Sequence record: OQ540978.1
Direction: 5' to 3' (one strand)
From: Escherichia phage pEC-N1203-2Af.1
Length of the DNA stretch: 64,000 bases
The translations under genes and the position numbers were made by a program. Position 1 is the first letter of the stretch, and each line of letters starts with the position of its first letter. The notes below the pieces were generated by a model. The model did not search any database and had not been told where the DNA came from. It saw only the letters and a list, made by a program, of their open reading frames with translations. This document shows, piece by piece, positions 17,007 through 40,721 of this stretch.

Positions 17007-17046
17007 TAAAGCCCCCTTGGATTTCTCCTTGGGGGCTTTTCTTTTA
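17007..17046. terminator. bidirectional terminator between convergent + and - gene blocks
   Basis: AAGCCCCC...GGGGGCTT stem flanked by T-runs on both strands. Confidence 0.6.
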
Positions 17047-20000
17047 TCACTCCTTAGGTCGAACTCTTACACGGAGTCTCGATTGACGCTTACTGCGTTC
17101 AAGCTTCTCTGACAATGAGCCACGTTTAATCTTCGGCTTCCCTTCGTCATTAAACTTCTCCAAGAACTTCAAGTACTCAGTACGATTCGTTGTCTTGTAA
17201 GAAGGAATCTTAATATCAGGGTTCTCTTCAATTACACGTCTCATCTTCGCTACATCATCCCTACCAAGCAACTTACTCTTAGCCTGTTCAGCTGTAGAAC
17301 CAAAGATCTTCTCCAATGCTCTAGATTTGTTACCACCTGCGGAAGAAGCACCAAGTTTAGCAATAGCAGAGTAATCATCAGCACTAAACCAAGCTACCGG
17401 ATTATCGCCATACTTCTTCTTGTTTTCAGCAGCAGTCTGCAATGCACGTACAAAGCGACGGTTGTTACCAGCCTTGTCTGCACCATGAACCCTGTCTAAA
17501 ACTTCAGCCACACTAGCTAACTCGTCCAAGCTCTTCCCGCTTAAGAAAGCTTTCTCTACTTTATCAGCAAAGACTTCTTCCTGCTGTTTGATACTTTCCA
17601 AGATATCAGAATTTGCTTGAGATTTTTCATCGTCAGGCAGAGCAGAACGAATCTTCTCCATCTCCAACTCTTCCTCTTGCAGTTTCTTAATATCAGAGTC
17701 AACCTTCTGAGCCTCCTCAACAGCCTTCCTAGTATCCGCATCCAAGTTATCAAGCTTACCTTCAGTATCTCCAGTAATCTTAACAATCTCTTTCTCGATA
17801 GGGGTCATTGATTCGTACTTCTTAGCAAACTTCTCAACATCAGCTTCGATACGAGAACGAGCATTCTGATGTTCAGTAGGAGTCATAGGCTTATCAAGAA
17901 GTGCATAACGGTTATCCATGTAGGAACCAGCAAATGCTTCAGCATCCTCTTTAGATATGCCTTTATCTTCCAAAGTATGCATCAGGCGACGATGAATGTC
18001 GTCACGTTGACGTTGTACTGCCATGAGATCATTCTCACGCTTCTGAGCCGCTTTAAGCTCTTCACTGCGTTTAACTCTTTTGTCTATATCAAATTTACGG
18101 TCCATCTCTTCCGCTTGCTCATACATCTTATTCCACTTAGCCTGACGAGCATCCTCCTCTGCGTCAGTTAAACGACGCTGACGATCAAGGTAATCTGACT
18201 CGGCGTTATGGATACGTTCAATGTAACTACGGAACTTCTCTGGAGGAACTGGAGAGTTCTTATCGTGGTGAGCAGCCAACTGTTTCAATGTACGAGATTC
18301 CTGAGCCTCACGAACAGGTTTAGGTAAACCTTCCATCATCTTCTCAATCTCACTCTTCTGAGCTGCAATAGCCTCTAGAGTTTTACGTTCATTCTCAACA
18401 GCAGCTTTAGCATCTGAACGAGCCTGTGCCCTATTTCTCAGAGTAGCAAGACGTTCTTCACGAGCCTGCAAGTGTTTAGCAGCAGCTTCGTATTGAGAGT
18501 TCTTGTTAGCTTTGTTGAAGGCATTCACTTCTCTGTTATAAGTGTTAATAAACCCATCCCAAATATCCTTCATCTGACCAACTTCCAAAGCCTCTTCCCT
18601 ACCAGCTTTCTCTGAAGATTTAAACTTCCCATCTACAAAGTCATTCATCAGCCTACGCATAGCATCTTTCTGAGCAGGACGTAAAGGTTCAGAATCAATC
18701 AAAGTATCAATCTCAGACTGAAGCTCTTTCTTCTGGTCAACCAGTTTAGGAGCATCCTTCTTATCGAAAGCTTTGTTCTCTTCCAGAGCTTCTTGATACA
18801 GTCTATCAAACTCAGCCTCACGTTGCTTCTGGTACAATCTTTCAGATCTACGTTTCAGGCTTTCCAAGTTAGTTACGTTCCCACCTAAACCACTCTCTTC
18901 AGCACGTAATGCCTTAGTAGCAATATCTTCTGGCAGACCACGTTCTTTAACCCATTCAGCAAACTCAGATCGTACAGCGTTGTTCTTAGCAGTAGCAATA
19001 CCTTTCTGAGTAGCTCTCTGATTACGAGCCATTTCTTCATGACGTTCAGTATTGATAGCATTATCTTCCCGACGAATACGACGCATCAACTCCAAAGGAT
19101 CGCCTTTGTAAGCTAAGAAGTTTTCAGCAGTAGCTTTAGCCTTAGCAGCATTAGAGTATAAGGATTTAGCAAAACGTGTTGCACGATCTTTAGCAACTTG
19201 ACGAGCAGTGCTTGACATAGCAGCTAGGTACTCTATACCGCTTTCCGGTTTAACCTCCTGTACTGCCTCCTCAGGAGCTTTAGGAGCACGAGCAGGTAAT
19301 GGCTCAGCTTTGACTGTTGGTTCCTCTACGGTTGGTTCTGGAGCCTGTGCGGCCTCTTCTTGAGCACGTTGCTGTTCCATTGCACGACGTTCCTCTAAAG
19401 GATTACGAGCAGGGAGAGGTTCAGCCTGTGGAGACTGTTCAACCGGAGCTTCTTGAGCAGCTGCCTCTTCTTCAGCACGACGCTGTTCAGCCTGACGAAT
19501 AGCACGTCTTTGCGCAACTAAATCGCGAGCTGTAAGAGGAGCTTCTTGAGGAGCAGAAGAAGGAAGATTTTCTTCCGTCACAGTACTAGAAGAAGGCTCC
19601 CGAACCGGTTCGGTTTCCACGTCATTTTGCGTCTTAAATTTAATGTCATCAACAACTGGCTCTTCTTCCATTTTATCACGAGCTTCATCAACAGTAGACT
19701 TAGCACGAGCAACTTCCAAATCACCACGAGCCAGAGAGCGGATAGCTTCACTGTTGGATTCTTGTTGCTTAACACGTTGAGATCGAGCACGCTGAGAAGA
19801 GAAGCGATTCAGAGCATATTTAGCAGCACCAAGTGTGTTCATAACCAGACTAGGAGAAGAAGTCTCACGGAAGCCATCATCAGTCAGGGAAGTCCAACCA
19901 CGGTCTTGATTGCTCATGAACTTAGCTGTGTTATTCAGAGTATAAGCGTCTTGGATAGGATTAAAACCTTCAGGCATACCTTTCAGTTTCTTCAACCCAC

Positions 20001-21465
20001 CAATAGCTTTCTTCATCTCTGGAGAAACATTCTCAGCCATCTTCTGTAGTTCAGCAGCTTTCTCTACAAAGTTATTAAAGTCTTCACCATCACGAGCTTT
20101 GAATCGATTTGCTTCATTATAGAAAGTCTTGTAAGCATCAATGAAGTCACGGTCAGCTTGTGTGCGATTCTTAACGTCAAGTGGACTACCGGTGAAGTGT
20201 CCAGATGCTCTAAGAGAAGTTAATTCACGGTCTAGGTTATCTAGAACATCTGTAAGAGCTTTCGTGTTATCCTTGGTGTAGTCAGCCATTGCATCTTTCA
20301 TAGCAACTGCTTTCTTCTGGTTGTGCTCATTATCAGCGAATGCTTTACCACGAGTCTTAGCAGGAGAAGCCAAAGGATTGAGTCCCGGAATGTTAGAATG
20401 CTCTTTCTGAGCAGAAGCAGCTTTCTCAGCACGAGCTTGGTCTGTATTAAGAATACGCTGAGCAGCAGGAGAGTCTACAGCAACAGCATCAGTAATACGG
20501 AATCCATTCTCATCCAGAAGATTAAGAGCGGAAGCAGCGTTAGCAGTTTCAGCTTTAGAATAAGCTTCTTTCAGTTCATCAACATTCTTAGCACTTCGAA
20601 TCAGTTCATCATCAGCAGCAATGTCAGTCTTTGCATACTCTGGAGTATTCTTGAAGACAGCAGAATCTGGACGATTAATCAAACCATGAACGCCACCAAC
20701 TGCACCACCGAATGCAGCACCCATAGCGCCTTCTTCAATAGCACCTTCTAAGACATTAGCAAAGGTTGTGTCATCACCATGTTTGTTCTGAGCTTCAGCA
20801 GCACCAACAAGAGCACCACCTTTAGCACCAGCCACTGCGTTACTAGCAACGTTCTGACTGATACGACCAAGTGTAGACTCAGCTGTACCAACAGCACCCG
20901 GAAGGATTCTCTGAGCTGCATAGTTAGCACCACCAACTAGAGCGGCATCCAGAACAGACTTATCTTCTCCCTCTTCAGGAGTTTGGTCTGCATATGCACG
21001 ACCTGTCTCACGACCTGCAATGATAGCAGCGGCAGCTAATGGGTTAGCAACAGTCAAACCAATATCACCAACAACGCCAGCATATTGCCCAGCAGTTTTA
21101 CCAATCCCATCCTCAATCTTATCCATACGTTCTTTCAGAAGGTTCTGAGAGTTCTCTTGGATACGCTTTCCATAACTAGTTTGTGCTCCAGCTAGATTCT
21201 CACCAATCTCAACTAAACCACCAATACCTTTAGCAGCACTAGCTGCAATATTTGCACCACCAGATTGAAGAGCATTTGACACACCTTGAGCAAACTCACC
21301 TATAACACCACGTTCTTCTTGTTGTGGTTGTGCTACTGGCTGTTCCTCAGGAATAGAGCCACCTGCTGCCTTATATTGTTCTCTCATTTGAGCTTGCTGC
21401 TCCGGAGAGGCATTCAGATACGCAGGAGCTTTGGAAGCTTCTTCCCACGGTTTAATGTTAGCCAT
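17047..21465 (-). CDS. large virion internal/ejection-type protein (Gly/Ala-rich N-terminus, long coiled coils)
   Basis: Start moved to ATG at 21465 (MANIKPWEE) with AAGGAG 5 nt upstream; the 21510 start would lie inside the promoter motif. Confidence 0.5.
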   Translation of the reverse strand: MANIKPWEEASKAPAYLNASPEQQAQMREQYKAAGGSIPEEQPVAQPQQEERGVIGEFAQGVSNALQSGGANIAASAAKGIGGLVEIGENLAGAQTSYGKRIQENSQNLLKERMDKIEDGIGKTAGQYAGVVGDIGLTVANPLAAAAIIAGRETGRAYADQTPEEGEDKSVLDAALVGGANYAAQRILPGAVGTAESTLGRISQNVASNAVAGAKGGALVGAAEAQNKHGDDTTFANVLEGAIEEGAMGAAFGGAVGGVHGLINRPDSAVFKNTPEYAKTDIAADDELIRSAKNVDELKEAYSKAETANAASALNLLDENGFRITDAVAVDSPAAQRILNTDQARAEKAASAQKEHSNIPGLNPLASPAKTRGKAFADNEHNQKKAVAMKDAMADYTKDNTKALTDVLDNLDRELTSLRASGHFTGSPLDVKNRTQADRDFIDAYKTFYNEANRFKARDGEDFNNFVEKAAELQKMAENVSPEMKKAIGGLKKLKGMPEGFNPIQDAYTLNNTAKFMSNQDRGWTSLTDDGFRETSSPSLVMNTLGAAKYALNRFSSQRARSQRVKQQESNSEAIRSLARGDLEVARAKSTVDEARDKMEEEPVVDDIKFKTQNDVETEPVREPSSSTVTEENLPSSAPQEAPLTARDLVAQRRAIRQAEQRRAEEEAAAQEAPVEQSPQAEPLPARNPLEERRAMEQQRAQEEAAQAPEPTVEEPTVKAEPLPARAPKAPEEAVQEVKPESGIEYLAAMSSTARQVAKDRATRFAKSLYSNAAKAKATAENFLAYKGDPLELMRRIRREDNAINTERHEEMARNQRATQKGIATAKNNAVRSEFAEWVKERGLPEDIATKALRAEESGLGGNVTNLESLKRRSERLYQKQREAEFDRLYQEALEENKAFDKKDAPKLVDQKKELQSEIDTLIDSEPLRPAQKDAMRRLMNDFVDGKFKSSEKAGREEALEVGQMKDIWDGFINTYNREVNAFNKANKNSQYEAAAKHLQAREERLATLRNRAQARSDAKAAVENERKTLEAIAAQKSEIEKMMEGLPKPVREAQESRTLKQLAAHHDKNSPVPPEKFRSYIERIHNAESDYLDRQRRLTDAEEDARQAKWNKMYEQAEEMDRKFDIDKRVKRSEELKAAQKRENDLMAVQRQRDDIHRRLMHTLEDKGISKEDAEAFAGSYMDNRYALLDKPMTPTEHQNARSRIEADVEKFAKKYESMTPIEKEIVKITGDTEGKLDNLDADTRKAVEEAQKVDSDIKKLQEEELEMEKIRSALPDDEKSQANSDILESIKQQEEVFADKVEKAFLSGKSLDELASVAEVLDRVHGADKAGNNRRFVRALQTAAENKKKYGDNPVAWFSADDYSAIAKLGASSAGGNKSRALEKIFGSTAEQAKSKLLGRDDVAKMRRVIEENPDIKIPSYKTTNRTEYLKFLEKFNDEGKPKIKRGSLSEKLERSKRQSRLRVRVRPKE

Positions 21466-21503
21466 AACGTCTCCTTTTATAAATAAAAATGTCCTACCCC
21501 CTA

Positions 21504-21512
21504 TATACATTA
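21504..21512 (-). promoter_or_regulatory. candidate phage-sigma late promoter motif TAATGTATA
   Basis: Exact motif on - strand about 38 nt upstream of the ATG at 21465. Confidence 0.45.
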
Positions 21513-21532: not shown

Positions 21533-23182
21533 TTATTGCGTGAACCAGCTAGTGTCTTCGACAGCTGATAAAGCACCGTTCAGTTTAGGATTGGTTGCTG
21601 CACCACCAACATAATCTTCTGCTTCATCAGAGAAAACACCGAGAGGGTCATAGAAACCGCCAGAAGGAATTGCACGGTTAACCAATGCAGTAGCTCTCTT
21701 CTTATCCATACCAGAACCAACATAAGCGTTGATAGTATCTCTCTTAGCATCAGCAACACCTTTCATAGCAGAGGTATGACCGACGTTAGCCTGTTTACGA
21801 GCATAAGCAAGAGCAGAATCAGTAGGACGCCACCCAGACTTCAGAGCGAACTTGTTACCTACACGGATAAAGATTGATGGGTCTTCTGCAAAATGTCCCA
21901 AGTCTTCTTCAGTAAGAGAACGAGTAGAACCGATTTCAGCCCTTGCGGAGTTCATGATAGCCTGCATGTAAGCAGAACGAGCCGTCTGGTAATCCTTGTC
22001 CTTAACAGCTTTATCAGCCAAGTCCAAGTCTTTATTAGACTGGTTAAACAAGCCACCTTTCTCTGCCCACTGCTTAGCGATAGTACCTTCAGCCGTATTC
22101 TGAGCGTTACGAATTTCTTTCGTGGGGAAGTTGAAACTTTGAGCAACTTGTTCAGCACGTTCAGCCTTAACTTTATCACGATAGCCAATCAACTCTTTCT
22201 GACGTTCAAAGTTCATATCAGTTCTCTTTTCAGCAGCACGACGAGTTTCCTCGGCACGTTCACGCATAGCCTGCTCTTGAATCTGTTGACGTCTATCCCA
22301 TTCAGCATTCTGACGTTCTTCACGAGCAGCATACAGAGCTTCTTTCTGAGCAGGATCTACAGCTCTCATCTTCAGTAGAGATGGGTCTCCGTTAGCAATA
22401 GCAGCTGCGATCGAGTCTTGAGAGAAGCCTTGTTCAATCAGAGCATCACGGTTAGCTTCCAGTTGCTTCTTAGTCTCATCTTGATTAGCCATTCCCTGAC
22501 CAATCTGGAAAGCTTCAATAGGAGACTTACCTGACATAATGGAAAGACCTACACCCATCAAACCTGTGTAGAAACTAGAGTTCTGATAGAATGGTTCTTT
22601 CTGTAGCTTGTTCCAAGCTTCCGAAGGGTCTTTAGCTTTCGCAACTTGCAAGATATCGTTGTTAACACGTTCCTGATCTTTAGCACGAGTAGCAGCAGTC
22701 ATTCCATCACCAGCGTCTTGTCCTTGAGCAAGAGTATTAATCACACCTTGTGCCTGTTCCACCTGAGAAGGAGTGAACTCCATAGGACCAGCTTCTAACG
22801 GTTTAGTAGGAGGTGTTACCGGAAGAGGTTCTGATTCTGGAGGAATAGAAGAAGGAGAAAGTCCAGCAGCTTGCATGGTTTCTTGATTCTCAAACTCAGG
22901 AAGAGTTACAGCCTGTTGTGCCTGAGGTTGTACATCATTTGGGATATCAGAAGGAAGGCCGTTACTCTGAACAGGATTCAACATATTCTGATAATCTACT
23001 GAAGTTTGACCTACAAGAGAGGAAAGCCCAGCAGGTATAGCAGGACGTTGATACATAGAAATATCTGCTGTCTGAGTAGGTCTAGCCATATAAGGAGAGG
23101 CCGAAGCCGCTCCCGGATTAACACCATAGAAAGTATTTCTCGGGTCGCGACTTCTGACCTGAGCATAAGTTGTCTGTTGCAT
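21533..23182 (-). CDS. virion structural protein (hypothetical)
   Basis: 549-aa ORF in the late operon; AGGAG RBS. Confidence 0.5.
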   Translation of the reverse strand: MQQTTYAQVRSRDPRNTFYGVNPGAASASPYMARPTQTADISMYQRPAIPAGLSSLVGQTSVDYQNMLNPVQSNGLPSDIPNDVQPQAQQAVTLPEFENQETMQAAGLSPSSIPPESEPLPVTPPTKPLEAGPMEFTPSQVEQAQGVINTLAQGQDAGDGMTAATRAKDQERVNNDILQVAKAKDPSEAWNKLQKEPFYQNSSFYTGLMGVGLSIMSGKSPIEAFQIGQGMANQDETKKQLEANRDALIEQGFSQDSIAAAIANGDPSLLKMRAVDPAQKEALYAAREERQNAEWDRRQQIQEQAMRERAEETRRAAEKRTDMNFERQKELIGYRDKVKAERAEQVAQSFNFPTKEIRNAQNTAEGTIAKQWAEKGGLFNQSNKDLDLADKAVKDKDYQTARSAYMQAIMNSARAEIGSTRSLTEEDLGHFAEDPSIFIRVGNKFALKSGWRPTDSALAYARKQANVGHTSAMKGVADAKRDTINAYVGSGMDKKRATALVNRAIPSGGFYDPLGVFSDEAEDYVGGAATNPKLNGALSAVEDTSWFTQ

Positions 23183-23195
23183 ATTTATCTCCTAA

Positions 23196-24164
23196 TTAAG
23201 AACTAGCCATCCCGCCAATCACCCCTCCAGCCAAAGCACCCCAAGGACCAAAAGAAGAACCAGCTGCTGCACCACTCATAGCTCCACCTAAGAAGCCACC
23301 ACCCCCACCAGATGTTTTAGTAGTTGTAGTTTGTCCGAGAGCGCCGTTAAGTACACCTGCTGCACCGAGTTGGTTATTGATATCTTGCCACCCCCAATTA
23401 GCTGCGTTCTGAGCATTCTGGTAGGCATTATCATATTCATTCTGCTGTTGCTGTTGTTGCTGCAACCCAGCCTTCCATTGGTTTAATATTTGCTGTTGAG
23501 ATAAATCAGCACCTTGTTGACCTAAGTTGGAAAGGTTAGAACCAATAGTAGAAAGACCTGAGAGAGCAGCTGCCTGATTCTGTCTATTACCAGAGAGAAT
23601 GCTTTCAGCTTGGTTGATAGCCGAGTTATAAGCACTGTTGGTAATATCCGTTGCTTGACTTTGCATCTGATTCAGAGCATCACCTTGAGCAAAAGATTTA
23701 GCCATACGAGCACCTGAACCCTGCTGACCAGCATACTGTTGAGCCAACTGAGGAAGAGCATTACGTGCTAGGTTCTGTTGGACTTGTTCATTATTAGCTG
23801 TAATAGCTGCCTGAACAGCATCGTCATCATACAATTGACCAGCAAGAGCACCAATCTGTTCTCCAGTAACTCCACCCTGTCCAGAGAGGCTCTGATAGCC
23901 TTTATAGGCATTATCCAGATAACCTAACCCCTGACCTGCTGCATCCATGTATTGCTGCGAGAGAGTCCCTAAGGCACCAGATTGTGCCAAGTTGTTAAGA
24001 GCCTCTGTCTGGTTGTTATTAAACCCTACATTGTCACGATAAACATAATCCCCTGAACTAGTATTACCAATCTGTTGGTTAAGCTGGTCAATATACTGTT
24101 GAATGTATTCAGGGCGAATCATTTGGGAAGTAGTTTTACTATTCCCTCCTCTAAATAAAGCCAT
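23196..24164 (-). CDS. Gln/Asn/Gly-rich virion protein with Gly-zipper C-terminus (paralog A)
   Basis: Low-complexity Q/N-rich sequence; C-terminus GGGGGFLGGAMSGAAAGS. Confidence 0.5.
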   Translation of the reverse strand: MALFRGGNSKTTSQMIRPEYIQQYIDQLNQQIGNTSSGDYVYRDNVGFNNNQTEALNNLAQSGALGTLSQQYMDAAGQGLGYLDNAYKGYQSLSGQGGVTGEQIGALAGQLYDDDAVQAAITANNEQVQQNLARNALPQLAQQYAGQQGSGARMAKSFAQGDALNQMQSQATDITNSAYNSAINQAESILSGNRQNQAAALSGLSTIGSNLSNLGQQGADLSQQQILNQWKAGLQQQQQQQNEYDNAYQNAQNAANWGWQDINNQLGAAGVLNGALGQTTTTKTSGGGGGFLGGAMSGAAAGSSFGPWGALAGGVIGGMASS

Positions 24165-24176
24165 ATCAAATCTCCT

Positions 24177-25229
24177 TTAGTTTGCTCCGAATGCCCCTAA
24201 GACACCACCTAAGATATTATTACCCGTTGTGGATAACCAGTTAGACTGGCCTTTCTGTTGAGAAAGATTAGAACCACCGATCATAGGACCAGCCATACCA
24301 GACTGCCCACCTGAGTTGTTATAGGAACTCCAAGCATTCTGGGTCTGTTGGTTAGGAGAGAAAGCACCCAAACGACCTGCAATACCCAAGCCAGTGATAC
24401 CAGCACCTAGGAGCTGTTGTCCAGTATTGACTCCCGGAGCAGCATTCTTAATTGTGTATCCAGCCATCGGGCTTACACTGTTTAATACATTAAGTTGGTT
24501 GTTAAGCTGATTCCATCCATACTGCTGAGAGCCAATAGCATTCTGCCAATTAATATCAGCTTGAGATTGAGCTTGTTGCTGTTGTAGATTACCAGCCATG
24601 AGTTGATTCTGGATAGCTTGTTGAGTTGCCTGAACACCTTGCGCACCAAGATTGAGATTCTGTCCAGCTAAACCAGACTGAGCACCAAGCAAACCTCTCT
24701 GGAAGTTCTGGTCTTGTTGAAGAGCACTGATTCCCATGTTCTTACCATTGATGGTACGAGATAGGTTTGTATTAGCACCATTCAAAGCCGCCCCTTGAGC
24801 CGCAGCCCTACGGAGAGAGCCTGAATCAGAGCCATTGCCAAGAGAAACATTAGAAGCTGCTTTGCTAGTAGCCTGAGCAAGAGCTGAGCTGTTTAAGCCT
24901 TTACTAAAGTTATTAACACCATCAGCAGTTAAACCACCACCATTGACAATATTCTGGTACTGTTGGGCAAGAGAGTTCAATTGGTCTAAACCTTGCTGTG
25001 TACGAGGTGTGTACATATCAGCCAATTGCTTTTGAGTTGTAGAAGCTGCTAAGTTATTCAGAGCACCTTGTTGGTTGCCATTAAACCCAGCCAGCTGTTG
25101 GGAAATAAATCCCTGATCGTTGTTCTGCATATTCTGAGCATTAGCAACAATCTGCTTCAGCAGGGCATCAACCTGAGAGGAAGGAGCCACTGTGGTTTTG
25201 CTAGAAGCTGATTTTCCAAATAAAGACAT
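24177..25229 (-). CDS. Gln/Asn/Gly-rich virion protein with Gly-zipper C-terminus (paralog B)
   Basis: Similar N-terminus and ALNNLA motif to 23196-24164; C-terminus GVLGAFGAN. Confidence 0.5.
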   Translation of the reverse strand: MSLFGKSASSKTTVAPSSQVDALLKQIVANAQNMQNNDQGFISQQLAGFNGNQQGALNNLAASTTQKQLADMYTPRTQQGLDQLNSLAQQYQNIVNGGGLTADGVNNFSKGLNSSALAQATSKAASNVSLGNGSDSGSLRRAAAQGAALNGANTNLSRTINGKNMGISALQQDQNFQRGLLGAQSGLAGQNLNLGAQGVQATQQAIQNQLMAGNLQQQQAQSQADINWQNAIGSQQYGWNQLNNQLNVLNSVSPMAGYTIKNAAPGVNTGQQLLGAGITGLGIAGRLGAFSPNQQTQNAWSSYNNSGGQSGMAGPMIGGSNLSQQKGQSNWLSTTGNNILGGVLGAFGAN

Positions 25230-25248: not shown

Positions 25249-26031
25249 TTACTTAACACCAATGCTAGCCAAACGTCTAAGCACTGCTTGTGTTTGTGGG
25301 CTGTACTGAGAACCTGCCGCATGTGGTGCACTCGCTCTCTGAACTGTTTGAGATGTAGGAGGTTTACCAGCAAGCATAGCAGCTACTCCTAATACTGCAT
25401 TACCAAAGTTCTGTTGAGGCTTCTGATCTTCACCTTCCTGCACTTCATCAGAGTAAAACTCTACCGGATTACCACCTAAAGCACCTGTCTTAGAAGCAGC
25501 AATCTCTGCCTGAGTGGGAGCTTGTGCAGCCTTCTCTCTGTCTAACAAGTCAGGATTAAACTGATTGACTGGTTGAACAGCTTGCAAAGCTCCAATTGGG
25601 TTAGCAATCTGAGAAGCTGCATCGCCGTAAAAAGGAAGAAAGTGTTTGTTGTTCATTGAGTCAAGAGCCTGAGGAGTAAATCCTTTCTTACCAGCGAACA
25701 TCTGCCTAGCACCACCGGTTCCTTCAGAGTAGCCGACCATTGCCTTCTTAACATCACCATTGAAAGCTTTTAAGTTATCTCTGATATAACGAGCACCCAT
25801 GTCAATATTCTTTGCTGGGTCCAGTCTGTCTTCTAGTTTGTATCCATAGTCTTTAGCCAATCCTTTACTGATCTGCATTAAACCTACAGGACCAGTTCCA
25901 GAGGCTACTTTAGGACGTCCACTAGACTCTCTTTGGATTACAGCATGAATCAAAGCAGCAGGAATCCCATACTTCTTTGAAGCTTGCTGTACCATTGGGT
26001 CTAGTTCTTCGATACCCATTCTAATTGCCAT
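25249..26031 (-). CDS. virion-associated lytic transglycosylase (SLT domain)
   Basis: RESSGRPKVASGTGPVGLMQI resembles the SLT catalytic region. Confidence 0.6.
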   Translation of the reverse strand: MAIRMGIEELDPMVQQASKKYGIPAALIHAVIQRESSGRPKVASGTGPVGLMQISKGLAKDYGYKLEDRLDPAKNIDMGARYIRDNLKAFNGDVKKAMVGYSEGTGGARQMFAGKKGFTPQALDSMNNKHFLPFYGDAASQIANPIGALQAVQPVNQFNPDLLDREKAAQAPTQAEIAASKTGALGGNPVEFYSDEVQEGEDQKPQQNFGNAVLGVAAMLAGKPPTSQTVQRASAPHAAGSQYSPQTQAVLRRLASIGVK

Positions 26032-26040
26032 AATATCTCC

Positions 26041-27075
26041 TTATTGTATACTCCTGAATATCTTTCTAGCATCTAATACTGGAATACTTAACCCGAGGGC
26101 ACCACCCCCTCCTAAATCATATTGACTACTCCAAGAGTAAATCATCCTTCCGAAACCTGTACCGAAAGAAGAGCCATTCATCATGTGAGATCTTGTGTGT
26201 TGAAAATACCAACCACTAGCCTTACCTCTTATTGCTCCAGCACCATAAGATAGAGGTATCATTGGATAGGCCAAAGATGTGTTACCACCACTCATAGGCA
26301 TAAATCCCTCAACACTAAAAGGGGTTCTATATGTAGAAAAAACACACTGAGACCCATTTGGAGAAAAGATATTTAAACCTCCATTGTGGGTTGGTACTCC
26401 AGAACCATCACAGAAGACGGCAATTCTAACACCACCGATGGACCCTGTTTGGTTTGTGTTACCATTATCATGAGACCTGTTCTGGTACACATAAACAACC
26501 CTGTTGGATGGATTGTATAGTAGACCTGCTCCGCCGTTACTCCAATTCGCGTAGACAGTTGCTCGGCTCATATCAAAACCACCAATATCTGGTATTTGAA
26601 GAGCACCATGTATGTCACCCTCCCAAGCCCAAATACATTGACCAACAACTCCAGAATCAGAGATTGAGAAATAGTCAGCAGAGTTGGAGAATGTGATTCC
26701 ATAGTTCCTATTAGCTCTAGGCCATATTTGATATACATTAAAAGCCATATCAAATACCCAACCGTTTACGTTATAGTCCATAGTAACTCTGAAGGTTGAG
26801 TTATTAATAACAGATATATCCGTTATCCAATACACATCAGACGTTACATTAGGAGGTATGTATCTCTCCCAAACAACAGACCCTGTTGGGACTACAACTA
26901 TCTGACCACTTCCATCCCAACCGCTTATAGGCAAGTCACAGGTATTTCCACTAAAAGAGAAATTCCCACTTACCCTATTTCTGAGTTGAGGGAAAGTGCT
27001 ACCACTGTCAATGTAAATATCAGCAGGTGCCGCTGGACCCGGACCGACCGGGCTTGTCCATATTCCATATGCCAT
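26041..27075 (-). CDS. tail/virion structural protein
   Basis: 344-aa beta-rich Gly/Asn/Ser-rich ORF in the tail region. Confidence 0.45.
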   Translation of the reverse strand: MAYGIWTSPVGPGPAAPADIYIDSGSTFPQLRNRVSGNFSFSGNTCDLPISGWDGSGQIVVVPTGSVVWERYIPPNVTSDVYWITDISVINNSTFRVTMDYNVNGWVFDMAFNVYQIWPRANRNYGITFSNSADYFSISDSGVVGQCIWAWEGDIHGALQIPDIGGFDMSRATVYANWSNGGAGLLYNPSNRVVYVYQNRSHDNGNTNQTGSIGGVRIAVFCDGSGVPTHNGGLNIFSPNGSQCVFSTYRTPFSVEGFMPMSGGNTSLAYPMIPLSYGAGAIRGKASGWYFQHTRSHMMNGSSFGTGFGRMIYSWSSQYDLGGGGALGLSIPVLDARKIFRSIQ

Positions 27076-28088: not shown

Positions 28089-31000
28089 TTATCTCCGTCC
28101 GCCAACAGCAAACTCTATCGTTAACCCATTGATAGCAGCATTACTGTTAACATCATTATCTATAACATTATAGAAAAGGTATGGATGGTTCAGTCTCACC
28201 GAGACATGCCTGTCAACACCAATCGTATAAGTCTTAGATGTGTGTGGGTGTCCATATTCATTTGAGAATTGACTACCTCCAGCTTCAAAGGTATAAGTGC
28301 CTGAGCCGGTTGTCTGAGGACGGAATCTGTTAATATGCTTCTGATTCCATTCGTTAGTGATGTTATCAAAATCCATACCAGTTCTTTCTAACCTCATCTC
28401 CAGTGGTTTTTCTATAACAACATCATTTAACCTGTCATAGAAATAATCAAGAGCACCTACATCCACTTGGTAGAATCCCCTCAAGAACGAACCTACTATC
28501 GTAACCCTCTGTCTAAAGTTTGTTGCATCCTTTCTCCAAACGAGTTCTTTGATAGATGGGTCATCCCAAGTAATCTCTTGGAAGTCAGACCAGATTGGAC
28601 CTCTCTCTAGAACAGGAGGATCAACCAGACCGATACACTGAGCATAAGGGATAGTACGGAAAGACCAAGTATCAAACTCGTAGTTCCATACAGCAGCTTT
28701 AGTGCAAGCGAAGCTTTCTTTCGGCTCTCCCGGACCTACATAGAGAACCCAAACTTCTTTCTTATCCTGATGCAAGTGTACTCGAGTTGCTAGAGGGTTA
28801 ACCAGACACACCTCATTAATCAGCATGTTCTTAACACGGTTAGATGCAATTGACTTCTTGGTTGCACCATTGTGTAGGATTACATCGTTCTGAGTAACTA
28901 CGAAGTGGCTACCTTCTACTTCAACCACACACTCAGGAGCAAGGATACCGGAGTCGTTAAAAAGTTTCTTGAACATCAGAGGTTGGTATGTGTTATTAGT
29001 AGGAGAACCAATATACGTTTCAAACTCTGTATAAACGAACAAGTAATCTTTAAGAGGTAGGATATCAATCAAGCTACCATTAGAATCCGCCAAGTCAATG
29101 TAACCAGCATATCCATTTTCTAAAGCCTGAGTCTGTCCTACGATGTTAGAAGCCAAGTCCGAAGACACAACTCGATCGTAGGCAAAGTCATCCCACAGTG
29201 TAGGAGCTTTGTTCTCATTAGCAAAGTTAGACCAACGAAGACGAAGTGGATAGTTAGTGGTAACACCAGAAGCATTAGCCTCTCTCATATTCAGAGCAAA
29301 AAGACGGTTGTTAAAAGATCTTACTCTTTCACATTTCCAGTTAAACTTCTTGACTGAAGGGTTTCCATCATTATCAACAACTGTTTGCTCACCCCATCCC
29401 GGAAGATCTACAAAGTATTCTGATTCGAATTCTTTTACCTGAGGGGTTTCATAGTGAGTTGTAGCAACTGCACAGTTAGAGATAACAGCGTGATACCAAG
29501 GGTAGTCATCAAAAGCATCATAATCTTTCTGAGTCATTTGACTGACAGTACATGTTACGTTAATCTCTCCTTTACGAAGAGCAACCAGTTTGATAGATTT
29601 ACCAGTAACTGAAGTTGTAGAAACATAACCTGTCTTATCAACAGACCACTGATAAGAATAATCACCTTCTGGAGAAGCTGTAGCTGTGATAACAATCTCT
29701 TCACCAACATCGAGAGAAGCGCTGACAACATCTAAGGTTACGGATGACAAAGGAGTTGCGAACAAAGAAGCTCTTGCAAAACCTTCAATATCATTTACGT
29801 TAGAATAGTCATAGAAGTTGTTACCTTCGTACATCCCTGACGTATCAATACCAGACGTAGGCTCAGCAAAATAAACCACTTCTTCACTTTCAGTAGGAGT
29901 TACTGCTTCCTCCTCTTGTGATTCAATTGGTTCTGATGCAGGTGCAGCAAATGCCATAGCACTTGTTCTCATCGCCCTTCCAGCTAAGTCTACTCGTACA
30001 GTACAGACAGCAACTCTGTTACCTTCTTCAGTGGTAGCCGTAATCTCAGTAAAGCCAGCAAGTAAAGCATTTACTGTCCCTTGTGTACTGGTCCCTGATA
30101 CTGTTGCAATATTTGGATTAGAAGAAGTCCAAGTAATATTTTGATTAGGGGCGTTAGCAGGAGAAAGGGTAGCAGTTAAGATATACTGAGAACCTCTACT
30201 AACTATCACATCTGACTGACTTAAAGTGATACTGTCAATCTGAGGAATGGAAACAACCTCACAAGAAGCAGTCTTCGTTCCATTATCAGCAGTGATTGTT
30301 ACATTGCCCTCACCATTAGCAGTAATGACTGCCGTTAGAGAATTGGCGTTAGGGGTCACGGATACAATAGAAGCGTTATTGCTGGACCAAGTTACAGGGG
30401 TTTTACCAGTAACAGCTGTAAGAGTGGTAGTCCCTCCTTTACGGATAGTAACAGTATCTTGACTCAAGAAGATGCCTGAATCACCATCTATAATGTTCAC
30501 AGCAATCTGAGCCACTACAGAATCATCAGCAGTAGAGATGGTTACTACAAGATTACCCTCTCTCTCAAAAGATGTTAGAGTAGCAAGTTTAGAATCACTG
30601 GGATCTACTGTAATACTTCCATAAGTTGAATTACTAACCTCCCAAACAAGATCGGTATTGTTAGCATCAGCAGGAAGAAGAGAAACTTCTAGATTCTTAG
30701 TCTGATTGAAGTTCATTGAAATAGTTGATTCTTTTGGAACAATCTGAGAAACAACCGGATAAATCTTAATCGAGGCAGAAGCCTTTTTAGTGACTGTAGC
30801 AACCTTACGGCTAATGTCAGTCAAGCTTTCATCTGTCAGTTTATATAACTTCTTATCCGTACCTACAACAAGAAAGCTATTACCTGCGCTATAATAATCG
30901 AAAGGCATAGATATGAAAGACAGAGGGGTTAAATCCTTATCTTCGTCTACATAAGAAAGAGGGGCATTGCCCCCCGTCTTAAATACTCTCTGCTCAACAA

Positions 31001-31106
31001 ATCGAGCATTTATAGCATTAGTGAAAGCATTAGGAGCTAAGTCTGTCGGAGCCTGATCAGCGATAACGCCTACAGCACCTAACGACTTTATTGGATACAG
31101 CGCCAT
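28089..31106 (-). CDS. large tail protein with Ig-like (BIG2-type) domains
   Basis: 1005 aa; repeated Thr/Ser/Val-rich segments typical of Ig-like domains. Confidence 0.5.
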   Translation of the reverse strand: MALYPIKSLGAVGVIADQAPTDLAPNAFTNAINARFVEQRVFKTGGNAPLSYVDEDKDLTPLSFISMPFDYYSAGNSFLVVGTDKKLYKLTDESLTDISRKVATVTKKASASIKIYPVVSQIVPKESTISMNFNQTKNLEVSLLPADANNTDLVWEVSNSTYGSITVDPSDSKLATLTSFEREGNLVVTISTADDSVVAQIAVNIIDGDSGIFLSQDTVTIRKGGTTTLTAVTGKTPVTWSSNNASIVSVTPNANSLTAVITANGEGNVTITADNGTKTASCEVVSIPQIDSITLSQSDVIVSRGSQYILTATLSPANAPNQNITWTSSNPNIATVSGTSTQGTVNALLAGFTEITATTEEGNRVAVCTVRVDLAGRAMRTSAMAFAAPASEPIESQEEEAVTPTESEEVVYFAEPTSGIDTSGMYEGNNFYDYSNVNDIEGFARASLFATPLSSVTLDVVSASLDVGEEIVITATASPEGDYSYQWSVDKTGYVSTTSVTGKSIKLVALRKGEINVTCTVSQMTQKDYDAFDDYPWYHAVISNCAVATTHYETPQVKEFESEYFVDLPGWGEQTVVDNDGNPSVKKFNWKCERVRSFNNRLFALNMREANASGVTTNYPLRLRWSNFANENKAPTLWDDFAYDRVVSSDLASNIVGQTQALENGYAGYIDLADSNGSLIDILPLKDYLFVYTEFETYIGSPTNNTYQPLMFKKLFNDSGILAPECVVEVEGSHFVVTQNDVILHNGATKKSIASNRVKNMLINEVCLVNPLATRVHLHQDKKEVWVLYVGPGEPKESFACTKAAVWNYEFDTWSFRTIPYAQCIGLVDPPVLERGPIWSDFQEITWDDPSIKELVWRKDATNFRQRVTIVGSFLRGFYQVDVGALDYFYDRLNDVVIEKPLEMRLERTGMDFDNITNEWNQKHINRFRPQTTGSGTYTFEAGGSQFSNEYGHPHTSKTYTIGVDRHVSVRLNHPYLFYNVIDNDVNSNAAINGLTIEFAVGGRR

Positions 31107-39033: not shown

Positions 39034-39066
39034 AGGTTGTCCTCCTTGTTATATGTAGACAAAGAA

Positions 39067-39075
39067 TATACATTA
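39067..39075 (-). promoter_or_regulatory. candidate phage-sigma late promoter motif TAATGTATA
   Basis: Exact motif on - strand about 33 nt upstream of the ATG at 39033. Confidence 0.4.
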
Positions 39076-39100
39076 CACACTAGCTTGTATAGGTCTTAAA

Positions 39101-39126
39101 ACAAGAAAAGCCACCCGAAGGCAGCT
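39101..39126 (-). terminator. rho-independent terminator after capsid genes
   Basis: On - strand AGCTGCC-TTCG-GGTGGCT then TTTTCTTGT. Confidence 0.55.
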
Positions 39127-39132
39127 TTAGTT

Positions 39133-39681
39133 TTAGGCTTTGGGGGTAACACCTGTGAATTCACAAGTGGCTGTTACAAGAGGTTTAGTCTTGTGTGTAG
39201 CTGCAACAGAGACTGTACCAGTAGCAGCATCAGCAAGAGTCAAAAGACCAGCTGCACTGACAGTACCTGCTTCAGTAGGGGTTACAACAAAATCATAATC
39301 ACTACCAGCAGAATTGGTTACAGTAAACATTGTAGAGAAGGCAGTAGTAGAACCACCGACTTTACCAGCAATAGGACCACGACTTACAATTGTAGGTTCA
39401 GGGTCAGCAATAGCTGAGATCGTAGATGTACCGGATTTACCACCTTTAGTAGCTTTCACTGTAATCGGGGTTTCTTGCGACGCACTCGGTGCAGTGTACA
39501 GTCCAGAAACAGAAATAGCCCCACCACCCTCAACGGACCAAACAAATCCAGTTGTTGATGTGGAGCTATCACTCATTTGTGCTGTAGCTGTAAACTGCTG
39601 AGTAGCCCCCGTCGGAAGGCTTGCAACCGACGAAGGACTAACAGTTATGGTATCTACTGTTACGCCGCCACCGCCTTTCCC
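39133..39681 (-). CDS. Ig-like capsid extension expressed by -1 frameshift from the major capsid gene
   Basis: -1 frame open from 39741 to 39133; reads GKGGGGVTVDTITVSPSSVASLPTGATQQFTATAQ... continuous with the Ig-like ORF. Confidence 0.6.
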   Translation of the reverse strand, partial: GKGGGGVTVDTITVSPSSVASLPTGATQQFTATAQMSDSSTSTTGFVWSVEGGGAISVSGLYTAPSASQETPITVKATKGGKSGTSTISAIADPEPTIVSRGPIAGKVGGSTTAFSTMFTVTNSAGSDYDFVVTPTEAGTVSAAGLLTLADAATGTVSVAATHKTKPLVTATCEFTGVTPKA

Positions 39682-40721
39682 GCAGCAGTGAACAGAACGC
39701 CGGAAGCATACGGGTTGCGGTGACGCAGACCAACTTCCATCTCAATCATCCACTTCTCGTAAGAACCATCTTTCGCCAGTTCAGTACGTTTCGGAGCACG
39801 CAGAACCATCTGGGTCCAGTCAGCGCTACGGAAGAAGTAAACTGCATCGGTAGGCATCCAACGGTTAACGATGATTTTGTAGCTCTGGCCCAGCGGGTCA
39901 GTGATGCTGTTAACTTCGTAGATGAACTGCTTGGTGTTCTCAAAGATACGCTTACGTGAACCCTGAGTATTTTCTTGCAGACCAGCGAAGATCTTAGCAT
40001 GAGCCGGGTTAATCATGATGATATCTGCTTCAGAACCAGCGGTGTAAAGTTGCAGAGTCATATCAAAGATATCTGCTTCATCAAAACCGATGTTAGTAGC
40101 CGGGTTAGAAGCGTTCTGTGCAACTTTAACAGTGATTGCACCGGTATCTGGGTCAGCAGGACCATTCTTGGTTTTGTCAACAACGCCACCAGCCAGACCG
40201 CCGTGAGCACACAGGAACTGGAAAGCACCAGTCTTACGAGCTGCATGGGTGTCGTTCTTACCGATCTGAGCCGGATCAGCGGCAGAGTTAGTCAGATACT
40301 GGTCAGCCAGAACGTCGGTACGAGCCTGACCGGACAGAAGGATTTTCTCGAGGTCACGCTTGATCTCTTTACCTTTCTTCTCCAGCTGATACATCAGTTC
40401 ACGACCACGACCGTAGTTAGCGGTGGTGTTAGCAGTGTCAGAAACACGAACAACCTTACGCAGAATCTGAGTAACGTTAGACTTGATAACAGTCGGTTTC
40501 ATTTCGCCGTCTTCAGCACGAGAGCCTTCGACGTGTGCGTTATTACCATCAACGCTTGCCAGTGCATCGGTCTGCCAGCTAAAGATAGTCTGGTTGATAG
40601 ACTCTTTACCGGTCATAGATACGAACGGAGTATCCTGAGGGGACAGAACAGAAATCCAGTTAGCAAAAGAAAGTTTTTTACCATTCTGGTCATACGATAC
40701 AAATAAAGTTGGATTAGCCAT
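39660..40721 (-). CDS. major capsid protein
   Basis: 353-aa ORF immediately after the scaffold gene; carries the frameshift site. Confidence 0.65.
   Translation of the reverse strand: MANPTLFVSYDQNGKKLSFANWISVLSPQDTPFVSMTGKESINQTIFSWQTDALASVDGNNAHVEGSRAEDGEMKPTVIKSNVTQILRKVVRVSDTANTTANYGRGRELMYQLEKKGKEIKRDLEKILLSGQARTDVLADQYLTNSAADPAQIGKNDTHAARKTGAFQFLCAHGGLAGGVVDKTKNGPADPDTGAITVKVAQNASNPATNIGFDEADIFDMTLQLYTAGSEADIIMINPAHAKIFAGLQENTQGSRKRIFENTKQFIYEVNSITDPLGQSYKIIVNRWMPTDAVYFFRSADWTQMVLRAPKRTELAKDGSYEKWMIEMEVGLRHRNPYASGVLFTAAGKAVAA
39675..39681 (-). other. -1 programmed frameshift slippery heptamer G GGA AAG
   Basis: X XXY YYZ heptamer in zero frame, 5 codons before the capsid stop; the -1 frame is open from here into the Ig domain. 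Confidence 0.55.

Follow-up and report, generated by a model that had tools for sequence, protein, structure and literature searches.

A paralogous pair of Kuravirus ejection proteins and a possible likeness of one member to P22 gp7

In the infection of cells by short-tailed phages, no component is as poorly understood as the ejection proteins. [quoted passage not shown] LC-MS/MS of purified virions covered 53% of gp21 and 49% of gp22 (PMC4281155). Both proteins, together with gp20, a lytic transglycosylase (SLT), gp23 and gp24, were present in virions, but missing from genome-release intermediates, which led the authors to name gp20-24 ejection proteins (PMC9509320). SU10 tails stayed intact after DNA release while gp21 and gp22 vanished; the tail density was assigned completely to portal, adaptor, nozzle, needle and fibres, none of it to gp21 or gp22, and no density for these two proteins was seen in the maps (PMC9509320). 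The authors' model places the ejection proteins in the periplasm, where they extend a 28-nm nozzle that already touches the cell surface (PMC9509320), so that this model does not need an outer-membrane pore.

Three further phages offer points of comparison. In situ cryo-EM of P22 revealed a dodecamer of gp7 helical hairpins docked on the hub, in which the Gly-zipper C-termini are V-shaped and make up 24 outer-membrane helices (bioRxiv 10.64898/2026.09.03.749273). P22 gp7 is essential for channel formation and, although encoded by a single gene, adopts two conformers (gp7-o and gp7-i) that fit the 12-mer to the 6-fold hub. T7 gp14, a small internal virion protein that is ejected first, is the proposed outer-membrane pore of the T7 ejectosome and fills the outer-membrane slot, as gp7-like proteins do, in a three-part scheme that continues with tunnel and inner membrane. 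Finally, Pseudomonas phage Pa223 (Bruynoghevirus), which has the adaptor and hub most similar in structure to those of SU10, encodes the putative outer-membrane channel gp56 (313 aa), which has predicted membrane helices near its C-terminus (233-311) and was detected in virions by mass spectrometry, but is invisible in cryo-EM.

The window, that is the whole 64,000-nt stretch of DNA analysed here, comes from Escherichia phage pEC-N1203-2Af.1 (OQ540978.1), a phiEco32/SU10-like coliphage of the Kuravirus group, with nucleotide identities of 96% to phages 172-1 and NJ01 and of 91% to SU10 and phiEco32. Its ejection gene block contains the following genes:

25249..26031, minus strand: 260-aa lytic transglycosylase (SLT), ortholog of SU10 gp20 (PF01464, E 1.7e-24; phrog_12507, E 1.8e-176)
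24177..25229, minus strand: 350-aa protein rich in Q, N, G, A and L, B-type paralog, ATG start; ortholog of SU10 gp21, phrog_4287
23196..24164, minus strand: 322-aa protein rich in Q, N, G, A and L, A-type paralog and the P22 gp7-like one, ATG start; ortholog of SU10 gp22, phrog_4287
21533..23182, minus strand: 549-aa protein with the motif GLMGVGLSIMSGKSPIEAFQIGQG, ortholog of SU10 gp23 (phrog_12130, E 0)
17047..21465, minus strand: protein of about 1472 aa, ortholog of SU10 gp24, the largest of the ejected set (phrog_14629; SU10_024 has 1473 aa)

The last of these most likely starts at Met16 of a 1487-aa open reading frame, residues 16-1487 of which align to positions 1-1473 of the phrog_14629 profile. 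The paralog pair lies directly downstream of the SLT gene and upstream of the 549-aa and ~1472-aa frames. The hexameric nozzle is encoded at 28089-31106 of the window. The genes are tightly packed, and strong Shine-Dalgarno sequences (AAGGAGG and AAAGGAG) precede both paralogs by 6-8 nt. The order of SLT, pair and gp23/gp24 homologs is identical in the window, 172-1, Bas91 and SU10. A relative with an SU10-type portal and only 41-43% identity retains it as well (SLT, B-type, A-type, a 483-aa gene and a >795-aa gene).

The 322-aa protein is 96% identical to SU10 gp22 (SU10_022) and the 350-aa protein 95% identical to SU10 gp21 (SU10_021). Lengths (322 and 350 aa) and position between the SLT and gp23/gp24 genes are equal, and we found no material difference between the two pairs. 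In the same line, both proteins matched the 'DNA ejection protein' family phrog_4287, with E-values of 4e-107 (residues 1-310 of 322) and 3.7e-117 (residues 1-350 of 350), respectively, and in Proteus phage Privateer, a homolog of 409 aa carries the annotation of a virion protein verified by mass spectrometry. As shown by orthology to the SU10 experiments, both genes encode internal virion (ejection) proteins of a Kuravirus, an identity that is already published and annotated (phrog_4287) for proteins of the gp21/gp22 type. The initial annotation, made from the DNA letters, had arrived at the same picture: adjacent paralogs at 23196-25229, where both open reading frames indeed lie with exactly these outer coordinates on the minus strand, dominated by Q, N, G, A and L, placed with the SLT enzyme and the 1472-aa protein, and fitting an ejection or channel-forming set of internal virion proteins. 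The virion proteomics it had proposed as a check exists for the SU10 orthologs in the form of the LC-MS/MS coverage given above, and these orthologs leave the particle together with gp20, gp23 and gp24. Absence from virions or a place in the tail, which it had named as contrary outcomes, is not what the SU10 data reveal, other proteins accounting for the tail density.

Judged by sequence, the 322-aa and 350-aa proteins are true paralogs, with 29% identity over 315 aa (BLASTP with compositional adjustment, E 2e-12) and an hhalign probability of 99.9% (E 5e-32) between the A-type and B-type family profiles. Q, N, G, A and L together make up 61.8% of the 322-aa and 63.4% of the 350-aa protein, compared to 33.4% for a set of ten further structural proteins from the window, and charged residues 9.3% and 6.6%, respectively, compared to 20.6%; K and R amount to 3.5-4.3% in the pair. 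Neither paralog matched a family in Pfam or NCBIfam or a solved structure in sequence searches, and both lack a classical hydrophobic transmembrane segment, the maximal Kyte-Doolittle mean over 19 residues being 0.94 (322 aa) and 1.26 (350 aa). Prion-like or chance low-complexity reading frames were ruled out, because positions are conserved in hundreds of homologs, ribosome-binding sites are strong and mass spectrometry had detected the orthologs.

The two C-termini, both of which had been described as glycine zippers, turned out to differ. Three segments and the predicted hairpin tip discussed below are located as follows:

23199..23315, minus strand: glycine zipper at the C-terminus of the 322-aa protein (residues 284-322; TSGGGGGFLGGAMSGAAAGSSFGPWGALAGGVIGGMASS), in which a Pro-Trp turn lies between two Gly-rich arms
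23706..23735, minus strand: tip of the predicted hairpin in the 322-aa protein (residues 144-153; YAGQQGSGAR), where the AF2 model loops from helix 114-143 to helix 150-275
24357..24413, minus strand: segment of the 350-aa protein rich in Gly and Leu (residues 273-291; LLGAGITGLGIAGRLGAFS), conserved, not a canonical zipper
24180..24218, minus strand: Gly-rich tail at the C-terminus of the 350-aa protein (residues 338-350; NILGGVLGAFGAN)

The 322-aa protein holds seven overlapping GxxxGxxxG motifs (0.9 expected; none of 2000 shuffles reached seven), and its residues 284-322 form a 39-residue run without polar or charged residues that was likewise matched by 0 of 2000 shuffles. With repeated GxxxG, a polar-free segment and an excess over composition, it is a canonical glycine zipper, and statistically clearly so; GxxxG repeats of this type are seen in tightly packed membrane helices. 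The description does not hold for the 350-aa protein, which has no GxxxGxxxG motif and a longest polar-free run of 13 residues, an unremarkable length (fraction of shuffles reaching 13, 0.41). Its residues 273-291, the top Kyte-Doolittle window (1.26), are conserved among homologs, with no variation at G275 and conservation of 90% or more at G282, G285 and G288; the tail at 338-350 is conserved as 'NILGGVLGAFGA' in closer relatives only and variable in distant ones. The membrane activity initially ascribed to both C-termini is a putative one, proposed by analogy with P22 gp7, and the analogy holds clearly for the 322-aa paralog only. The glycine-zipper families of Pfam (Gly-zipper_YMGG PF13441, Gly-zipper_Omp PF13488 and Rick_17kDa_Anti PF05433) are motif families rather than a functional class; neither window protein matched any of them, and a few relatives gave matches below threshold.

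AlphaFold2 modelled the 322-aa protein, from a 60-sequence alignment, as a long helical hairpin (pLDDT 79.6), in which helices within residues 50-143 pack on a 126-residue helix (150-275) of about 19 nm. The tip of this predicted hairpin bears a family-wide G..GS[SG].R motif, 'GxxGSSR' in the 60-sequence consensus, and, by analogy to the 'fingertip' of gp7, may serve in docking. For the 350-aa protein, the model built from an 18-sequence alignment was unusable (pLDDT 41).

New in this analysis, as opposed to the published ejection identity, is the apparent likeness of the 322-aa type to P22 gp7. Gp7 shares the composition of the pair (60-63% Q, N, G, A and L; 9-10% charged residues), is likewise encoded by a small gene in the ejection-gene block, and forms the helical hairpin that is predicted for the 322-aa protein. 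At their C-terminal ends ('...GSSTPWGAAIGGGIGLLGSLF' in gp7, '...GSSFGPWGALAGGVIGGMASS' in the 322-aa protein), both carry a two-arm Gly zipper with a P-W-G-A turn. Family-versus-family hhalign comparison of A-type and gp7 profiles yielded local scores of 44.6-50.5 (probability 81-91%, E 1e-5 to 1e-6), as compared to maxima of 20-25 for column-shuffled and 24 for reversed controls, and aligned the zipper at 284-322 with gp7 residues 195-227, the V-shaped outer-membrane hairpin in P22. Complementarily, a Foldseek search of viral models (BFVD) returned, at probabilities of 0.96-1.0 (E 6e-3 to 5e-2), entries titled 'DNA transfer protein p32', which by name belong to the APSE P32/P22 gp7 family; APSE-1 P32 itself is a gp7 homolog.

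Other comparisons returned no such signal. When single sequences were compared with P22 gp7, gp20 and gp16 by BLASTP or hhalign, no result was significant; a signal arose only between family profiles. PF25688, the P22 gp7 family, matched neither window protein (E up to 0.1), and a scan of 60 members of the gp21/22 family likewise gave no match to it. In the reverse direction, 120 gp7 homologs were used to build an HMM, which detected no member of the gp21/22 family, and gp7 matched phrog_598, not phrog_4287. The B-type family gave an hhalign probability of <5% against gp7, and a sequence search with gp7 against solved structures found no deposited relative. Global collinearity of A-type and gp7 families did not exceed that of block-shuffled controls, so the likeness may reflect convergent composition plus a shared zipper module. 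P22 gp7 also differs in being about 100 residues shorter (229 aa), in being a single gene where the window has a pair, in losing 20 N-terminal residues to host OpdA where the Kuravirus family has another conserved N-terminus (MGLFGG...TTT), and in docking on a P22-type hub instead of an SU10-type nozzle. Together, these findings suggest a resemblance of the 322-aa type to P22 gp7 that extends over composition, predicted hairpin and C-terminal 'PWGA' zipper, with weak to moderate support from profiles and folds.

The comparison with P22 and T7 that the initial annotation had recommended gave a local similarity of the A-type to gp7, and none for the B-type or for T7. Homology to T7 gp14 was rejected: against gp14, the A-type, the B-type and the gp7 family each gave an hhalign probability of 0.1%. 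In addition, gp14 has an ordinary composition (42% Q, N, G, A and L; 20% charged) and no C-terminal Gly zipper. Pa223 gp56 is close to the window pair in size, but is a single gene, and tblastn searches with family members reached no Bruynogheviruses (LUZ24/Pa223-like phages).

With a cut-off of E 0.001, the gp21/22 family counts 445 cluster representatives, over which zipper and hairpin are conserved, and all isolated phages carrying it have Gram-negative hosts. Among 75 long fusion proteins, the gp23-like motif seen in the 549-aa protein, short and conserved and the sole basis of the link to gp23, follows the gp21/22-like module in 40, as compared to 1-10 (typically about 5) in shuffles. One checked fusion also has an SLT domain, and phmmer searches with the SLT, 549-aa and 1472-aa proteins of the window found no matches in the 75. 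The self-cleaving Peptidase_S74 domain (PF13884) occurs in 11 of 60 short relatives and, by a local HMM, in 13 of the 75 fusions, is placed after the Gly-rich segment and is absent from both window proteins. Privateer gp18 and GAP52 gp094 are S74 variants of this kind.

We consider it the best explanation, with a probability of roughly 60%, that the two proteins are ejected and that their hairpins build the outermost section of the DNA conduit in the manner of gp7. By orthology to SU10, both proteins are packed in the prolate head and leave through the tail upon needle release, together with the SLT, 549-aa and ~1472-aa proteins; inside the head they would be unfolded or have a loose fold. After exit they would fold into long antiparallel alpha-helical hairpins and oligomerise into a helical tube, the tip docking on the opened hexameric nozzle as P22 gp7 does on the tail hub, to give the first and outermost stretch of conduit. 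At its C-terminus, the 322-aa protein would place its Gly-zipper hairpin in the outer membrane, where the two short helices would form a V; the 350-aa paralog, with its degenerate Gly/Leu-rich C-terminus, would co-assemble in the same ring or make an adjacent one. The SLT would then cut peptidoglycan, and the 549-aa and 1472-aa proteins would extend the channel across the periplasm and inner membrane. A speculative extension, which we regard as unlikely, is a hetero-dodecamer of six 322-aa and six 350-aa subunits alternating on the hexameric nozzle. Such an arrangement would hard-wire the gp7-o and gp7-i conformers into two genes, of which only the 322-aa one keeps the full outer-membrane zipper. 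The S74 relatives would mature from a self-cleaving polyprotein, cleavage exactly after the Gly-rich segment freeing the membrane-inserting C-terminus only upon maturation.

The length of the predicted hairpin, with its 19-nm helix, would also suit proteins that are ejected, but act deeper in the envelope, the hairpins residing in a periplasmic tunnel and the Gly-rich C-termini in the inner membrane, while nozzle and needle breach the outer membrane; that the gp7 similarity is local only favours this reading too. We nevertheless hold it to be not very likely, as in P22 and T7, the two systems studied in most depth, the outer-membrane component is the small ejection protein encoded first (gp7 and gp14), the Gly-zipper hairpin has its specific match in the outer-membrane hairpin of gp7, and the 549-aa and 1472-aa proteins are the natural tunnel and inner-membrane candidates by size and gene order.

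Since loss from genome-release intermediates proves departure from the particle only, and no gp21/gp22 density appears in the SU10 maps, the pair might instead be internal core or packaging accessories, such as a DNA spool or portal plug, that are lost with the DNA and have no channel or membrane role. The scarcity of basic residues (K+R 3.5-4.3%) argues against DNA binding, however, and the conservation of zipper and hairpin over the 445 representatives, the fusion of the module to envelope-crossing functions in relatives (the gp23-like motif and, in one, SLT) and the essential part of the P22 analog gp7 in channel formation render this improbable. External fibrous tail or neck appendages, that is trimeric coiled coils folded by a Peptidase_S74 chaperone, are scarcely credible despite the S74 domain in 11 of 60 relatives, a GenBank record calling one homolog a 'neck appendage protein' and PHROG tail-fibre families matching the S74 region of a fusion protein, as the window proteins lack this domain, SU10 tail density is fully assigned without gp21/22, and the proteins disappear from particles whose tails are intact after DNA release.

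Ejection proteins are ordinary for this phage group, and the value of the pair lies in confirmation and in a mechanistic lead. Kuraviruses are part of E. coli phage-therapy collections, and only the names of their five ejected proteins are known. A link between gp22 and P22 gp7 would provide a testable model for how channel formation begins on the unusual SU10 nozzle, with a tube of hairpins and a Gly-zipper hairpin in the outer membrane.

The late operon of the window runs on the minus strand from ~47.3 kb down to 17.0 kb and comprises terminase, portal, scaffold, capsid, fibre, lysin, nozzle and needle genes. The two ORFs studied here lie within it, exactly at the coordinates given in the initial annotation:

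24177-25229, minus strand: 350-aa ORF, ATG start, strong Shine-Dalgarno
23196-24164, minus strand: 322-aa ORF, ATG start, strong Shine-Dalgarno

The ORFs are spaced 12 nt apart and are flanked by an SLT lytic transglycosylase gene upstream (260 aa; PF01464, E = 1.7e-24) and, downstream, by a 549-aa ORF and a large ORF of 1,487 aa. The large ORF begins 15 codons 5' of the start used in relatives (window 21466-21510, minus strand). As its PHROG profile alignment only begins at residue 16 and SU10 gp24 comprises 1,473 aa, the real start is probably Met16 (ATG at 21465; MANIKPWEE...), yielding the originally proposed product of 1,472 aa.

Between the tail-needle and SLT genes resides a 344-aa ORF (window 26041-27075, minus strand; DUF6453, PHROG 'membrane protein'). 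The corresponding SU10 protein, gp19, is recorded as undetected in virions, indicating a non-structural gene inside the structural and ejection block. Directly 3' of the major capsid gene (39660-40721), a ~630-nt gap free of ORFs of at least 150 aa (39034-39659, minus strand) may be a capsid slippage extension: in SU10, proteomics reportedly revealed an extended capsid protein in which ribosomal slippage fuses gp9 and gp10. Where the late operon ends and meets the plus-strand genes head-on, the intervening gap contains a hairpin with a trailing T-run that resembles a terminator (17014-17035, plus strand), in agreement with the position of a terminator annotated in SU10.

The window stems from a close relative of sequenced phages. 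At the DNA level, the region shares 96% identity with Escherichia phages 172-1 and NJ01 and ~91% with phiEco32 and SU10, all of them prolate C3 podophages (Kuravirus, subfamily Gordonclarkvirinae). Both proteins matched PHROG family 4287 'DNA ejection protein' (E = 1e-107 to 1e-117) and are likewise annotated as DNA ejection protein in RefSeq records; searches of Pfam and NCBIfam models and of solved structures returned no match for either. The 322-aa protein is the ortholog of SU10 gp22 (96% identity) and the 350-aa protein that of gp21 (95%). In purified SU10 virions, LC-MS/MS detected gp21 and gp22 with 53% and 49% coverage, respectively (PMC4281155). SDS-PAGE and mass spectrometry of virions versus in-vitro genome-release intermediates revealed that gp20-24, named ejection proteins by the SU10 authors, are lost upon DNA release; the SU10 head holds no resolved density for them (PMC9509320). 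The initial reading of the pair as part of an ejection or channel-forming set of virion proteins was therefore correct, and the virion proteomics proposed as its test had already been performed on a near-identical phage. Genes, virion location and ejection are thus already published and annotated.

The claimed dominance of Q, N, G, A and L holds for both proteins, as does their paralogy: they share 29% identity (BLASTP with compositional correction, E = 2e-12), and their subfamily profiles align with 99.9% probability (E = 5e-32).

Composition and C-terminal features of the two proteins
Q+N+G+A+L: 322-aa, 61.8%; 350-aa, 63.4%; ten other structural proteins of the window, 33.4%
Charged residues (D, E, K, R): 322-aa, 9.3%; 350-aa, 6.6%; same ten proteins, 20.6%
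GxxxGxxxG motifs: 322-aa, 7 (0.9 expected; 7 reached in 0/2,000 shuffles); 350-aa, 0
Longest polar-free run: 322-aa, 39 residues (284-322; 0/2,000 shuffles); 350-aa, 13 residues (shuffle fraction 0.41)
Maximum Kyte-Doolittle mean over 19 residues: 322-aa, 0.94; 350-aa, 1.26 (both under classical transmembrane values)

Glycine-zipper C-termini had been assigned to both paralogs, but a true zipper is present in only one. The C-terminal end of the 322-aa protein, 'TSGGGGGFLGGAMSGAAAGSSFGPWGALAGGVIGGMASS', is clearly non-random, whereas the 350-aa protein lacks the canonical motif and instead carries Gly/Leu-rich stretches at residues 273-291, where homologs share several invariant or near-invariant glycines, and 338-350, conserved in closer relatives only.

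The 322-aa (A-type) protein strikingly resembles P22 gp7, a small 'gp14-like' ejection protein with 60-63% Q+N+G+A+L and 9-10% charged residues, also at the C-terminal end ('...GSSTPWGAAIGGGIGLLGSLF' in gp7, '...GSSFGPWGALAGGVIGGMASS' in the 322-aa protein). T7 gp14 is unlike both (42% and 20%, respectively). According to a 2026 in situ cryo-EM preprint (bioRxiv 10.64898/2026.09.03.749273), 12 gp7 hairpins in two alternating conformers form a helical tube whose 'fingertip' docks on a hexameric hub, while 24 of the 36 outer-membrane pore helices come from the V-shaped C-terminus, where the Gly zipper lies. AF2 modeling of the 322-aa protein from a 60-sequence alignment confidently predicted (pLDDT 79.6) a long antiparallel hairpin, with helices at 50-143 packed against a single helix at 150-275, a family-wide G..GS.R motif at the tip and a disordered zipper.

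HMM-level membership in the gp7 family failed in both directions. Family-versus-family hhalign of A-type against gp7 gave local scores of 44.6-50.5 (probability 81-91%, E = 1e-5 to 1e-6), compared to at most 20-25 for column-shuffled controls and 24 for a reversed template; the template alignment determined whether the initial long helix or the zipper was matched. Global A-type/gp7 alignment did not exceed block-shuffled controls, the B-type family (350-aa) gave no signal and PDB fold searches returned generic hairpins only. A viral model library yielded phage proteins bearing S74 as well as several entries (E = 6e-3 to 5e-2) whose name, 'DNA transfer protein' or 'DNA transfer protein p32', assigns them to the APSE P32/gp7 family. 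Together, these results lend moderate support to a link between the A-type protein and the structurally resolved gp7: distant relatedness is probable, and at a minimum the two share a closely similar architecture. By analogy with gp7, the A-type protein would refold into a tube of hairpins seated on the nozzle, and its zipper would insert into the outer membrane. A more speculative reading is that the paralog pair hard-wires the two conformers of gp7, with the two proteins alternating in a ring of 6+6 subunits. As the chief alternative, the pair would build periplasmic or inner-membrane channel parts, for which the SU10 model leaves room, since contact with the cell surface is already made by the 28-nm nozzle.

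An exhaustive profile search recovered 445 cluster representatives at E ≤ 0.001, 53 of them at E ≤ 1e-10. The order SLT, B-type, A-type, ~480-aa gene and large gene is kept in a relative that is only 41-43% identical and has an SU10-type portal. Grimontviridae (7-11, GAP52, Privateer and Aeromonas phages) encode one ~410-aa gene in place of the Kuravirus pair; the Privateer homolog (gp18, L016:6971-8200) is annotated as mass-spectrometry-verified in virions. In this type, a Peptidase_S74 intramolecular-chaperone/autocleavage module directly follows the Gly-rich segment. Pfam detected it in 11 of 60 short members, GAP52 gp094 (L017:6866-8098) scoring slightly over the curated cut-off. In many homologs (P0075-P0089, P0100, Privateer gp18 and GAP52 gp094), the S74 module opens with 'SD[KR]R.K..[IV]'. 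Self-cleavage at this junction would give a mature protein that ends in the Gly-rich segment, like those of Kuravirus.

The gp21/22-type module is N-terminal in 75 of 150 listed matches, proteins of 470-2,100 aa (P0091-P0200; for example P0106, L007:10001-13150, and P0130). In 13 of these 75, the Gly-rich segment leads straight into an S74-like module, and one of eight checked against Pfam has an SLT domain. The motif 'AGLGMMASRSPF..AIGEGGL' occurs in 40 of the 75 (1-10 in shuffles, typically ~5) and also in the 549-aa protein of the window, the gp23 ortholog (residues ~205-235; window 22480-22580). The fusions point to a functional connection of gp21/22 with gp23 and, in a single instance, with a gp20-like SLT domain; they look like ejection polyproteins, 13 with a putative S74-like cleavage site between the parts. 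One fusion, of 1,049 aa, sits in a 68-kb metagenomic podophage contig (L007) with an SU10-type adaptor. Unusual neighbors for ejection genes were observed there: the next gene (676 aa, L007:13147-15177) matches Pfam InPase and is shortly followed by a small Response_reg-domain gene (L007:15793-16149). A passive core or packaging role of the pair is unlikely, given the few basic residues in both proteins and the fusion of relatives to envelope-crossing modules. The tail structure of SU10 contradicts a role as external fibers, as does the loss of gp21 and gp22 from particles with intact tails.

The family N-terminus is conserved as M-[GSA]-L-F-G-G, a Thr/Ser-rich run and Pro (window 24120-24164 and 25185-25229, minus strand; homologs P0056-P0130), with some distant members beginning MC.G or MGCG. 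As a host protease removes the first 20 residues of P22 gp7, N-terminal processing is possible in this family by analogy.

Beyond what was known of these ejection proteins, our analysis adds the restriction of the zipper to one paralog, a moderately supported link to P22 gp7 and the existence, in relatives, of forms in which the module is S74-bearing and putatively self-cleaving, or fused.
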